Shown in pieces: positions 51,284 to 56,554 of a DNA stretch of 64,000 nucleotides; within the stretch, counting starts at the first letter, position 1, and each line of letters starts with the position of its first letter. Below the pieces are notes generated by a model that did no database searches, was not told the origin of the DNA, and saw only the letters and a list, made by a program, of their open reading frames with translations. The translations under genes and the position numbers were made by a program. This DNA is from Escherichia phage PBM-3: sequence record PV053165; one strand, written 5' to 3'.

Positions 51284-51562
51284 TTACTCTGCTTTACTAC
51301 CGCCATTGGTTTGAACAACAGTTACGTTTGTAACTTGGCTTTGCCCTTTGTTGGACAGTGCCCAAATCAGTGCTACTACCCAGAATACCAGTGACCAGCC
51401 TAATACAATATTGAGTACACCAATACCCCACTTGGAGGCATGGCCTCGTGCAAAAGCAATGATAGTAGGGATGAGGTATACAGCTAGTATGAATAAGAAA
51501 ACAAGGATTGCTGCTAAAGATTCCATGATGGTTCCTATGTGGGGTTGAGTTAGTTTCTTCAC
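51284..51562 (-). CDS. Superinfection-immunity-like membrane protein (Imm-type)
   Basis: Two TM helices with LIPTIIAFARGH and VLGWSLVFWVVALIWAL, resembling the phage Imm superinfection immunity family. Confidence 0.5.
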   Translation of the reverse strand: MKKLTQPHIGTIMESLAAILVFLFILAVYLIPTIIAFARGHASKWGIGVLNIVLGWSLVFWVVALIWALSNKGQSQVTNVTVVQTNGGSKAE

Positions 51563-51830: not shown

Positions 51831-52337
51831 TTATTTTGAAGGTCTAGCAGCTACTGGTTGGTTTTCCTGGTTCTGATACTTGCCATTGTAATTAGCAGGT
51901 TCCTGAACCAGATGAAATAATACTTGAGCTATCCCAGCACCAGCCGGGATATGTAGTTTCTTACGACCATGATAGACCAGTTCAAGGGTAAGATACCCTT
52001 TCCAACCTGGCTCAATCACGGTATTGAACACTGATAATGCACGTCTTGCCCACGTAGACTTATCGTGAACGATAGCTACACAGGATGGAGACATGTTGAA
52101 CTTCTCAATTGCTGAAGCCAAGGTGAACTTACCGAGATGGCGTGATACTTGATTTCCATCAACGACTTTCACCATTGGAATCAACCCAAATAAGCGATAG
52201 AAGGTAATGTCTTGTTTGATACGAATATCATAACCAGCTTCACCTAATCCATAGCTTACACCATGCTCTGATATCTTACGGTCTGGGACATCCAGCAACT
52301 GAGATGAACGGTATAGAGAATTACCATTAACAACCAT
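51831..52337 (-). CDS. dCTP deaminase / dUTPase-fold enzyme
   Basis: GYDIR, VIEPGWKGYLTLEL and IPAGAGIAQVLF motifs typical of dCTP deaminase. Confidence 0.65.
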   Translation of the reverse strand: MVVNGNSLYRSSQLLDVPDRKISEHGVSYGLGEAGYDIRIKQDITFYRLFGLIPMVKVVDGNQVSRHLGKFTLASAIEKFNMSPSCVAIVHDKSTWARRALSVFNTVIEPGWKGYLTLELVYHGRKKLHIPAGAGIAQVLFHLVQEPANYNGKYQNQENQPVAARPSK

Positions 52338-53512
52338 TATTTCATTCCTTTAGGGATATGAACTACCTCCCCAAAAGGTACGGTAGCATTGGGATTATTC
52401 AGAACACACCAGATGATAGGAATATCAAATGGTAATTCTTCCATTGGATGAACATACATATCGGAGAATATGATTGCAGCAGTTGGCTTATTCTTAATAA
52501 TCCAATCTCGTACTGGCACAAGGCTTGTACCACCACGACCAGTAATCTTAATCTCTTCAAAAGTATCTTCTTCAGTGATGTCTATCTCTTCTTGGATAAT
52601 ATCGTCGAAGGTAATTAAGGACATCTTCTTAGGATTGAACTGGCTCTTGACATAGGCAACTTCTGAGTTAAATCGCAGAGAGTCAGCACTACTAATGGAA
52701 CCAGATACATCCTCAAAGTAGGCTAAGTGTCGTAGACGTCCTTCATCATCTTCCATGGAAGGTAGATAGATGTCAGTGTAACGACGGTTAGGTCTGGCCC
52801 ACGTATAATGAGTATCGTCAATGTCGGTAAAGAAGTTCATCAGAACTTCCTGCCATGGAACCACTGGTTTGAGGAATTGGGTAATAACCTCTTCCATACG
52901 ACCAGCACCCTTACCAGGCATTGTTCCACCAGCCATTTTCTGGCTCTGCATTGCACGTACTACGTTGTTGACAACAGCACCCTGGGACTGCCCCGAAGAG
53001 GGGGATTTCATGTCGCCAGCAAGACCTGCTCCAGCACCCCCTGACGGCTTCTGCCTTTTCTGAGGGTTCTTCATCAGGTCATCGTAGATGTCTTCTTCAA
53101 CCCATCCTTTATATTGAGGGTCTTTGCAAATACCTTCATCAATACCAGTGAACTTGTAACCATCTTCTTCTAACTGGAGGTTAATGAAGTGGTCACATGC
53201 CTGGTTCCAGATTTCTGGGTCACGGCTTCCACGACGGATGTCATGCAGATATGCTACATGCCAGAGTTCGTGCATTAACACTGTTTCTCTTGCGTCTGGA
53301 CACATCCAGATAAAGAAATCCGGGTTGAAGTGTAGTTCTATCCCATCAGTACATGCGGTGGGACAATCCTCACGTTTCCATGAGAACTTAAGGCTACATA
53401 GTAATGAACCAAAGAACGCAGCAGACTTGCCTAGGAAAGTCTGAGCCTGAATACGATCATATTCACGCATGAGTTGTTCATCACTAAGGGAGTGCTGAGG
53501 AAATTGGTTCAT
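52337..53512 (-). CDS. VWA-domain protein with N-terminal HExxH metallopeptidase-like domain (DUF2201-like)
   Basis: HELWH motif near the N-terminus, Gly-rich linker, C-terminal VWA-like region. Translationally coupled to the upstream MoxR-type ATPase. Confidence 0.55.
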   Translation of the reverse strand: MNQFPQHSLSDEQLMREYDRIQAQTFLGKSAAFFGSLLCSLKFSWKREDCPTACTDGIELHFNPDFFIWMCPDARETVLMHELWHVAYLHDIRRGSRDPEIWNQACDHFINLQLEEDGYKFTGIDEGICKDPQYKGWVEEDIYDDLMKNPQKRQKPSGGAGAGLAGDMKSPSSGQSQGAVVNNVVRAMQSQKMAGGTMPGKGAGRMEEVITQFLKPVVPWQEVLMNFFTDIDDTHYTWARPNRRYTDIYLPSMEDDEGRLRHLAYFEDVSGSISSADSLRFNSEVAYVKSQFNPKKMSLITFDDIIQEEIDITEEDTFEEIKITGRGGTSLVPVRDWIIKNKPTAAIIFSDMYVHPMEELPFDIPIIWCVLNNPNATVPFGEVVHIPKGMK

Positions 53513-53516
53513 TATT

Positions 53517-54569
53517 TTATCCGTGAAGGTAACGAGAGATATTAGCAGCAGCCTTACGCCATTCAGGGGTAGCCTGAAGTTCTGGTAATGCTCTGCCTAC
53601 TGTACGGAAGTACAGAATCTTATGGGTGAACGTTTTAAAGCGTTCGATGTACTGAAGAACATCAGCGAAGTTTTCCTCAGTGGTTTTGTTAGCCAGATGG
53701 TTAACGGTAGCCCAGCACAGGTTGTTATCTTCTGGTAGTGCACAGCCCAAAGGGTCTTTTACTACCTTCTCAATCGTAATCATACGATTGTATACCTGAG
53801 TAAACTGAACAAATTCTGTAGCCTTACCAGCAGTAACGTGTCCTGCATAGTAGATAGAATCTTCGTCAGGCAGAGCACCTTCAGGACGGTTCTTGAGGTC
53901 TTTATTAACAAAGTCCCAGGTACGAGGACAACAGAACGTTTTGTTCTTATGGGCTGGGTCAAAGTCATGCAGATAACCTGGATTAGCATGTAGGAATGCA
54001 ACCAGGCGTTCATCCCATTGTTGTGGAATCATTACGTCTTCAACAAAGATGTCGAAGTTAAGTTCCATTTCGAAGTGGACAACACGAGACTGCATTGCAG
54101 TACCCAGTGGGTTAACAATGGCACGGTCAGTAGCCTTGTTACCAGCGCAGATAATCATCACATTAGGATGGAGTTTTTTCTGACCAGTCATACGGTCTAG
54201 AATCAGTTTATATGCAGCAGCTATTACTTCTTTGCGAGCAGATGGGAACTCATCAAGGAACAAGAGCCAACCATTATATCCTTCTGGTATTTCATCCCCC
54301 TCAATAGGGAATAAATCAGCGAATGGGATAAACTCTGCACGGTCACCATTACGGAATGGTAAACCAGATAAGTCTTCCGGGGCAGAAGTAGACAGACGAT
54401 GGTCTATCAGCTTCATACCAAATTCTTCTGCAACAGAACGAATAATTGCAGATTTACCCATGCCTGGTGATGAAGTCAGGAATGGTACGTTACCTGCTTG
54501 CAGGGCACGAATAATAAAGTTACGGGCCTGACGTGTATTACATACGGTCAGTGAGTCAATGCTCGCCAT
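53517..54569 (-). CDS. MoxR-like AAA+ ATPase
   Basis: Walker A SSPGMGKS, Walker B LLFLDEF; ~350 aa; paired with a VWA protein. Confidence 0.65.
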   Translation of the reverse strand: MASIDSLTVCNTRQARNFIIRALQAGNVPFLTSSPGMGKSAIIRSVAEEFGMKLIDHRLSTSAPEDLSGLPFRNGDRAEFIPFADLFPIEGDEIPEGYNGWLLFLDEFPSARKEVIAAAYKLILDRMTGQKKLHPNVMIICAGNKATDRAIVNPLGTAMQSRVVHFEMELNFDIFVEDVMIPQQWDERLVAFLHANPGYLHDFDPAHKNKTFCCPRTWDFVNKDLKNRPEGALPDEDSIYYAGHVTAGKATEFVQFTQVYNRMITIEKVVKDPLGCALPEDNNLCWATVNHLANKTTEENFADVLQYIERFKTFTHKILYFRTVGRALPELQATPEWRKAAANISRYLHG

Positions 54570-54603: not shown

Positions 54604-54930
54604 TTAAGATTTAATACATGGGTAGGCTGTATCAATTGCCATTAGAACCATGTCTGATGGCACTTTTACTGCATTAACCTTTCGGTCGTACAGGATAATA
54701 GTGGCTACTTTGTCAAAGACATTTCCTAACTTCAAACTATCTGGTACGCAGTTCTTTCCCGCTTCTACACCCATAGTAACCATGCCCATGAAGTAACCCT
54801 GGTTCACAAAGTTTGCATTATTGGCTTTGTAATCAGCAGCAGCTTCCAACAAGGTTTCACGGCTGGATGCTTGAGCATTGAATGACAGAGCTGATAAAGC
54901 TACTACAGCAACAGCAATTAAAGTTTTCAT
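54604..54930 (-). CDS. Secreted/periplasmic small protein
   Basis: Sec-type signal peptide MKTLIAVAVVALSALSFNAQA. Confidence 0.45.
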   Translation of the reverse strand: MKTLIAVAVVALSALSFNAQASSRETLLEAAADYKANNANFVNQGYFMGMVTMGVEAGKNCVPDSLKLGNVFDKVATIILYDRKVNAVKVPSDMVLMAIDTAYPCIKS

Positions 54931-56530: not shown

Positions 56531-56554
56531 TCCCGAAGGAATGAGGCTAGTTTA

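Follow-up and report, generated by a model that had tools for sequence, protein, structure and literature searches.

What do two tightly packed genes, one for a putative AAA+ ATPase and the other for a protein with a VWA domain, do for an N4-like phage? This question is raised by a locus on the minus strand of Escherichia phage PBM-3 (PV053165), from which a stretch of 64,000 nucleotides (nt; hereafter, the window) was analysed. A previous reading made from the letters alone (the sequence-only reading) had proposed that the locus encodes a MoxR-type AAA+ ATPase and a VWA protein with an N-terminal HExxH metallopeptidase motif, and both open reading frames are located where it had placed them (Table 1). 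Our analysis leads us to suppose, with a probability of roughly 0.55, that the two proteins constitute a dedicated chaperone/co-chaperone pair, in which a MoxR ATPase ring and a VWA-zincin adaptor would remodel, and perhaps cleave, a client belonging to the replication phase of infection. The pair itself is not new: it is a known module, which the sequence-only reading had correctly recognised.

Identity of the two proteins

The reading of the first protein as an AAA+ ATPase of the MoxR type was borne out by its fold and by the profile of its family. The AlphaFold2 model of the ATPase (predicted local distance difference test, pLDDT, of 87.6) found its best Foldseek matches in the PDB among structures of NorQ (9qh4 and 9qhg; E 1.5e-7, template modelling score of 0.61–0.64 on the target), followed by CbbQ2 (6l1q, E 1e-6) and then by dynein and midasin. 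Both NorQ and CbbQ2 are MoxR ATPases with VWA partners. At the sequence level, a search of the PDB with the ATPase alone returned only a weak midasin match, and profiles of close homologues performed little better; a profile of 43 diverse family members (alignment A3), in turn, reached midasin with an E-value of 1.3e-11. Among these 43 proteins, 26 matched Pfam AAA_5, nine matched AAA_3 and three matched bpMoxR (E<=0.01). The window ATPase taken alone passes generic Pfam AAA only (E 1.2e-5), scoring 16.9 bits against AAA_5, where the cut-off is 22, and reaching an E-value of 0.013 against bpMoxR. Thus, the check by AAA_5/MoxR hidden Markov models, to which the sequence-only reading had pointed, gave a divided answer: most of the diverse family members match AAA_5, while the window protein remains below the cut-off. 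Such evidence supports the assignment of the ATPase to the MoxR/midasin class of AAA+ proteins by fold and family profile, not by its own Pfam AAA_5 score. The family comprises 14,214 cluster representatives at E<=0.001. The window ATPase matches PHROG 1297 'ATPase' (E 1.6e-133), and none of the NCBIfam and PADLOC models matched either the ATPase or its partner.

The protein has every residue that a ring-forming ATPase would need to hydrolyse ATP, namely K39, D106/E107, N144, R162 and, as the probable sensor 2, R216. Within the 43 diverse members, P35 and K39 of the P-loop are invariant, with G38 and S40 retained in at least 90%, and D106 and E107 of Walker B, the sensor 1 residue N144 and the arginine finger R162 are invariant as well. 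In the model, R162 directly precedes strand 5 (residues 164–168); the arginine finger of MoxR ATPases is located just ahead of this strand (PMC7159879). Another hairpin, formed by strands 131–133 and 137–144, lies ahead of sensor 1.

It is also important to consider the insertion of approximately 40 residues that separates strand 2 from the Walker B strand. In the model, it runs between strands 52–58 and 100–106 and contains two short strands (72–73 and 77–78) at a pLDDT of ~50–68; over residues 61–80 the pLDDT is ~50, and the hairpin geometry is tentative. Residues 59–99 nevertheless form the most densely conserved region of the ATPase, with T61, S62, P64, D66, G69, P71, A78, F80, P82, F83, F87, P88 and P95 invariant in close relatives. 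Such conservation of the helix-2 insert fits the role of a partner-binding surface known from NorQ (PMC13036017).

The second protein, which we refer to as the partner, is covered end to end by two Pfam families: DUF2201_N (190.9 bits, cut-off 23.2, profile positions 3–270 of 271) and DUF2201 'VWA-like' (117.6 bits), the latter including the DVSGS motif at residues 268–272. Its homologues were aligned in three sets of growing diversity (39 close sequences, 12 diverse ones and 47 that are very diverse), down to 21% identity; the diverse sets included proteins of Bacillus phage G, jumbo coliphages, rV5-like phages and cyanophage S-TIM5, as well as archaeal proteins. Twelve residues never change in these homologues (H81, E82, H85, N103, A105, D107, D268, S270, S272, E284, G328 and D351), and T329 is retained in at least 90% of the 47 very diverse ones. 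This invariance of peptidase residues and of the metal ion-dependent adhesion site (MIDAS) argues that both sites are functional, and the conservation pattern says that both are under selection.

The AlphaFold2 model of the partner (pLDDT 79.6) consists of a well-predicted N-terminal alpha/beta domain, a poorly predicted glycine-rich linker and a compact alpha/beta domain, the pLDDT being below 50 at residues 158–163, 214–221, 234–240 and 246–258. The HELWH motif sits on a predicted helix (residues 72–87), and N103, A105 and D107 are on another (99–116), where D107, 22 residues past H85, is a candidate third zinc ligand. A Foldseek search of the whole partner against the PDB gave VWA domains in almost all of the 50 matches listed (best E 5.8e-4, probability 1.00), led by the ArnB paralogue VWA2, the VWA domain of CLCA1 and the MIDAS domain of MDN1, with integrin I domains also among them. 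Neither the partner sequence nor its close-homologue profile found a real solved relative in the PDB. At the same time, the 47 very diverse homologues showed recurrent weak Pfam matches to zinc peptidase families: Peptidase_M48 in 18 of the 47 (best E 3e-4), DUF5700 in 17, PhageMetallopep and SprT-like in 10 each and M56 in four. To describe the partner as a VWA protein whose N-terminal domain is an HExxH metallopeptidase domain thus appears correct. Overall, the MoxR, VWA and HExxH assignments of the sequence-only reading were all left standing, the first of them by fold and family profile.

Table 1. Features of the ATPase–partner locus in the window (positions in the 64,000-nucleotide stretch; residue numbers refer to the respective protein)
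Feature	Position	Strand	Basis
MoxR/midasin-class AAA+ ATPase, N4 gp24 orthologue (350 residues)	53517..54569	-	Open reading frame, Pfam AAA, PHROG 1297, AlphaFold2, Foldseek, midasin profile match
Walker A / P-loop SSPGMGKS, residues 33–40, K39	54450..54473	-	Sequence and conservation
Insertion of ~40 residues between strand 2 and Walker B strand, residues 59–99	54273..54395	-	Helix-2 insert position of the MoxR clade
Walker B LLFLDE, residues 102–107	54249..54266	-	D106 and E107 invariant
Spacer of 4 nt, AATA, from ATPase stop to partner ATG	53513..53516	-	Direct sequence read
Zincin-like metallopeptidase fused to VWA domain, N4 gp25 orthologue (391 residues)	52337..53512	-	Pfam DUF2201_N and DUF2201, AlphaFold2
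DUF2201_N putative metallopeptidase domain, residues 17–253, including glycine-rich low-confidence linker (~150–260)	52754..53464	-	Pfam, E 4.4e-56
HELWH, predicted zinc-binding/catalytic motif, H81, E82, H85	53258..53272	-	Sequence and conservation
Compact VWA domain, residues 263–386, MIDAS D268-x-S270-x-S272, T329, D351	52355..52726	-	Pfam DUF2201, E 4.7e-34

Orthology, pairing and distribution

A match of 100% identity links the window to Escherichia phage PBM-2 (PV029541.1), which is a G7C-like phage (Gamaleyavirus) from the N4-like family Schitoviridae, and ~50 further relatives are found at 92–95% identity. Copies from phages such as Bas69 AlfredRasser and vB_Eco_AL25, which we take to be members of Enquatrovirus, are ~60% identical to the window copy. 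Homologues from LUZ7, RPP1 and EE36phi1 are labelled 'N4 gp25-like' and 'N4 gp24-like' (the partner of LUZ7 being an 'N4 gp25-like protein'), while some relatives of the ATPase are annotated as 'MoxR ATPase'. Judged by sequence, the window pair is orthologous to gp24 and gp25 of phage N4. These two genes have been annotated as 'putative ATPase, AAA' and 'vWFA', respectively, since at least 2009 (PMC2784036). Both belong to the 14-gene core of N4-like phages, where they have no assigned function, and they are middle transcripts in N4 (PMC4193335). The presence of both genes in this core set agrees with what the sequence-only reading had supposed about the conservation of the pair among N4-like phages. 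The pair is conserved there, yet it is not specific to this group, being also found in jumbo and rV5-like phages, in S-TIM5 and PA5oct, and in archaea of the order Poseidoniales.

To evaluate the association of the two genes, 80 IMG/VR loci with the partner were fetched; the scan of viral contigs for the partner used alignment A4, which is less divergent than A5. Of these loci, 76 are informative, having 1.1 kb or more of upstream DNA, and in all 76 the ATPase gene was located upstream on the same strand, with gaps from -1 to 2256 nt; the other four loci have less than 700 bases of upstream DNA. The pairing is beyond chance. In the phage collection, 730 records contain the partner and 823 contain the ATPase. 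Cyanophage S-TIM5, the jumbo phage Munch, PA5oct, Certrevirus CB7 and a Rhizobium phage all have the two genes side by side or close together. Looser arrangements also exist: in an rV5-like phage, a distance of 3.6 kb separates the ATPase gene from the partner gene, the two being on divergent strands, and in phage G and KPP-1 no family ATPase turned up within 3.5 kb of the partner gene.

Genes directly adjoining the partner gene in rV5-like phages, Mydovirus and phage G (encoding an 'anti-sigma factor', a 303-residue protein and gp579, respectively) were considered as possible ATPases and rejected (hhalign probability <1%). The label 'anti-sigma factor' is carried by the gene beside the partner gene in the rV5-like phages rV5_ev147 (locus L021, 3334–4374) and JeffSchatz (locus L017, 2424–3401); the JeffSchatz protein has no Pfam match and is unrelated to the ATPase family.

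Outside phages, archaea of the Poseidoniales (marine group II) have the pair as an operon beside housekeeping genes, and the chromosomal contigs that carry it reach 356 kb. The archaeal ATPase passes Pfam AAA_5 (28.4 bits) and is related to the phage family with an hhalign probability of 99.7% (E 5.7e-27). Other matches from the scan of the genome collection were set aside, most being phage contigs binned into metagenome-assembled genomes, and a Methylomonas match being a remnant of 99 residues.

Additional genes accompany the pair in some of these loci. The Poseidoniales operon comprises three genes (locus L009, 2723–7176; also loci L022–L026), coding for a conserved protein of 590–640 residues, the family ATPase and the DUF2201 protein; the first of these, upstream of the ATPase, matches no Pfam family, and the phage window encodes no homologue of it. 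A conserved acidic family of ~220 residues is encoded between the two genes in 25 of the 80 viral loci (marine; within L056–L108), and a different family of ~284 residues occupies the same place in six viral loci. We rejected all three as third components of the system, as none has a homologue in the window.

Proposed function and genomic context

The solved machines NorQ-NorD, CbbQ-CbbO and midasin offer an analogy from which a mechanism for the pair may be outlined. The VWA protein would dock on the ATPase ring via the conserved helix-2-insert region, its MIDAS might capture an acidic residue of the client, and ATP hydrolysis would pull or twist the adaptor together with the client. Such remodelling might make the client accessible to the fused zincin, which would cleave it, or, alternatively, switch the zincin domain on. 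The invariant catalytic glutamate of the adaptor's zincin suggests that remodelling could be coupled to client cleavage or to peptidase activation.

What might the client be? The pair is situated in a middle-gene block, with RNAPII subunit genes on one side and genes for dCTP deaminase, thymidylate synthase and rIIA/rIIB on the other, while in N4-like phages the late structural module is located far from it. Two terminator-like hairpins (55356–55334 and 51209–51187, minus strand) bracket a putative transcription unit of eight genes, to which the pair belongs together with the genes for dCTP deaminase and a superinfection-immunity protein; in the middle-gene region as a whole, nine such sites were found versus 4.0 expected from shuffles. 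A thymidylate synthase gene lies within ~2 kb of the pair in three unrelated lineages (the N4-like stretch, Munch and S-TIM5), and a Rhizobium phage has a gene for DNA polymerase I near it. The middle-gene block, dCTP deaminase and the nearby thymidylate synthase and rIIA/rIIB genes point to an intracellular phage or host complex, acting before or during DNA replication, as the client, rather than to a virion protein. Overall, the gene context favours a role in the replication phase over one in virion maturation. This argument is circumstantial, and the neighbours of the pair in S-TIM5, namely Hsp20 and genes annotated as virion structural, run contrary to it.

The sequence-only reading described the two genes as translationally coupled. 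The stop codon of the ATPase gene (TAA, 53519–53517) and the ATG of the partner gene (53512–53510) are separated by 4 nt without overlap (taaAATAatg), while the partner stop shares one base with the ATG of dCTP deaminase (TAATG at 52337). Such tight packing is consistent with coupling but does not prove it; coupling itself we only infer.

Several points weigh against the proposed chaperone/co-chaperone role. By itself, the window ATPase is below the thresholds of both Pfam AAA_5 and AAA_3. Among the matches listed for the whole partner against the PDB, there was no solved zincin corresponding to the N-terminal domain, and to name D107 as the third zinc ligand is a guess from the alignment. The VWA domain is unusually small (~125 residues) and has no obvious long finger of the NorD kind, so its mode of docking may differ. 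The middle-phase timing comes from a secondary citation on N4 and not from data on the window phage. Finally, the literature on DUF2201, COG3864, N4 gp24/gp25 and phage VWA-like domains yielded no experiment on the pair, nor any report of an assay for a DUF2201_N protein; with no functional study found, the statement of the sequence-only reading that the role of such pairs in phages is not established still stands.

A bolder version of the same idea, which we regard as rather unlikely, might also be formulated. According to it, the pair would be a two-component ATP-dependent site-specific protease of an uncharacterised kind, in which the MoxR ring, client capture by the VWA-MIDAS and cleavage by the zincin act together. 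Such a protease would serve many large virulent phages and Poseidoniales during the replication phase, acting on a conserved client (a replisome, nucleoid or nucleotide-metabolism complex) and not in virion maturation.

Alternative explanations

The best-placed alternative, unlikely in our opinion, is that the pair is a machine for virion assembly or maturation, in which the MoxR-VWA part would chaperone a structural component and the peptidase would trim structural proteins. Such a role was proposed by Iyer et al. in 2021 for group 2.2 jumbo phages, in which a MoxR AAA+/vWA pair with an N-terminal metallopeptidase was assigned to virion assembly and proteolytic processing; the proposal rests on the analogy with Acidianus two-tailed virus, whose tails need a MoxR-VWA system to develop (PMC7824862). 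Our own data lend it some credit: ORF892 of this virus is a weak structural match to the partner model (E 3.8e-4), and in S-TIM5 the pair adjoins Hsp20, close to the structural genes mentioned above. The PA5oct record of the ATPase bears an 'ESI-MS/MS' note too, but the same note stands on RNase H and is thus unspecific for virion proteins. The position of the N4-like pair in the middle-gene block, far from the late structural module, speaks against virion assembly, as do the recurrent proximity of thymidylate synthase, the DNA polymerase I gene of the Rhizobium phage and the existence of the pair as a chromosomal operon beside housekeeping genes in Poseidoniales. Gene context therefore counts against the only published functional proposal, while leaving it some probability.

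It is tempting to suppose that the pair instead serves host takeover or counter-defence, as a protease that cleaves a host factor of replication, transcription or immunity early in infection. Its early/middle surroundings would suit this, since a superinfection-immunity gene, a gene for a Tai4/Rap1a-like periplasmic protein and rIIA/rIIB are close, and for other zincins of jumbo phages, targets among host proteins have been put forward (PMC7824862). Nevertheless, we consider this explanation quite unlikely. A strictly conserved core pair is found in phages of Proteobacteria, Bacillus and cyanobacteria and on archaeal chromosomes, and such broad and strict conservation fits a conserved client better than a fast-evolving target in host defence. 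Moreover, no PADLOC defence-system model matched.

A still less probable scenario dispenses with proteolysis: the pair would be a chaperone for the insertion of a metal cofactor, similar to NorQ-NorD, CoxD-CoxE and the chelatases, with HExxH holding or delivering the metal to a target such as a nearby enzyme of nucleotide metabolism. It draws on NorQ and CbbQ2 as the closest solved structures, on weak VWA_CoxE matches in nine of the 47 very diverse partner homologues and on the dCTP deaminase and thymidylate synthase genes that recur nearby. However, E82 and both histidines are invariant in 47/47 of these homologues, which is a signature of a hydrolytic zincin; the family repeatedly matches the true peptidase families M48, M56 and SprT-like, and no metalloenzyme client co-varying with the pair was found in the loci examined.

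Finally, the identification of the 391-residue partner as an HNH endonuclease, suggested by its best PHROG match (PHROG 1314 'HNH endonuclease', E 9.5e-144) and repeated in PBM-2 and dozens of related GenBank records, has practically no chance of being right, being refuted by domain searches in which DUF2201_N and DUF2201 span the full length with no HNH family among the Pfam matches even at E<=1. A fold search that returns VWA domains also speaks against it, and genuine HNH homing endonucleases occur beside or within these genes in some relatives. Probably, these true homing endonucleases seeded the wrong label of the PHROG 1314 family, and the 'HNH endonuclease' annotation of the partner in many GenBank records is wrong.

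Inserted endonucleases of this kind are worth a separate comment. In Escherichia phage U1G (locus L027, 301–2235), the ATPase gene is split by an HNH-carrying insertion of ~890 nt annotated as 'Phage intron', which falls exactly between the L105 and D106 codons of Walker B. The ATPase gene of Vibrio phage pVco-7 (locus L028, 1798–3802) is also split by an insertion with an HNH homing endonuclease, and a sub-threshold Rfam match to a group I intron (28.5 bits, E 4e-4) was found just ahead of the second exon. Comparable two-piece ATPase matches were obtained for ZC03 and VCO139.

Neighbouring genes

Three strong terminator-like hairpins with stems of 8–10 bp and T-rich tails split the middle-gene region into units: besides the two that bracket the eight-gene unit, a third is located at 56547–56524 on the minus strand. 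The same putative transcription unit as that of the pair includes the gene for a membrane protein of 92 residues (51284–51562, minus strand), which matches Imm_superinfect (PF14373, E 9e-17). Directly upstream of the ATPase gene, there is a gene for a protein of 108 residues (54604–54930, minus strand) with an N-terminal signal peptide, labelled 'Tai4 protein' in GenBank. Its Pfam match to Rap1a, an immunity family for type VI secretion amidase effectors, is weak and below threshold (E 0.002).

Implications

Only 14 genes are common to all N4-like phages, N4 gp24 and gp25 among them, and the same pair is found in hundreds of phage genomes from unrelated lineages. Several N4-like phages are candidates for therapy, and identifying the client of the pair would fill a gap in the biology of this group. 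The client would further tell us if proteolysis can be linked to a MoxR-VWA machine; to our knowledge, such coupling has been demonstrated for no member of this class. We conclude that the pair is a well-defined experimental target and no surprise.

Comparison with known systems

The closest solved folds to the phage ATPase belong to the NorQ-NorD and CbbQ-CbbO systems, in which a MIDAS-bearing VWA partner is likewise encoded beside the ATPase. In NorQ, the VWA partner docks 'finger-in-pore' at the conserved helix-2-insert region, a mode that the authors propose to be general for AAA+/VWA pairs (PMC13036017), and this region is conserved in the phage ATPase too. Differences are nonetheless considerable. 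Identity to NorQ and CbbQ in structural alignments is 15–17%, and the phage ATPase carries an extra C-terminal helical region of ~80–100 residues. The phage VWA domain is much smaller and lacks an evident finger, while the phage zincin domain has no counterpart in NorD and CbbO. Furthermore, the NorQD and CbbQO systems insert metals or release inhibitors, and their clients are not cleaved.

Midasin (Rea1/MDN1) is the best sequence-level relative among solved structures, as the family profile indicates, and its MIDAS domain ranks near the top of the structures matched by the partner's VWA domain. However, midasin has its six AAA modules fused in one chain of ~4,900 residues and lacks a peptidase, whereas the phage system consists of two small proteins. 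Among viruses, the Acidianus two-tailed virus also encodes a MoxR-VWA pair, linked to ours by the ORF892 match; this pair has no peptidase domain (PMC7824862), is very distant in sequence and comes from an archaeal virus whose tails grow extracellularly.

The jumbo-phage pair described by Iyer et al. is much closer, having an identical architecture and belonging to the same families, so that proteins of Munch, 121Q and TH47 are matched by both window proteins. It has been treated as a feature of jumbo phages that serves virion assembly, whereas the window pair is found in a 73-kb podovirus, within a replication-phase block, and the pair extends far beyond jumbo phages, the partner being present in 730 phage records and the ATPase in 823. 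Closest of all are gp24 and gp25 of N4, which have the same order and the same place, with the RNAPII subunit genes upstream of them and nucleotide-metabolism genes downstream. Nothing of substance distinguishes them from the window pair, which is their G7C-like (Gamaleyavirus) copy.

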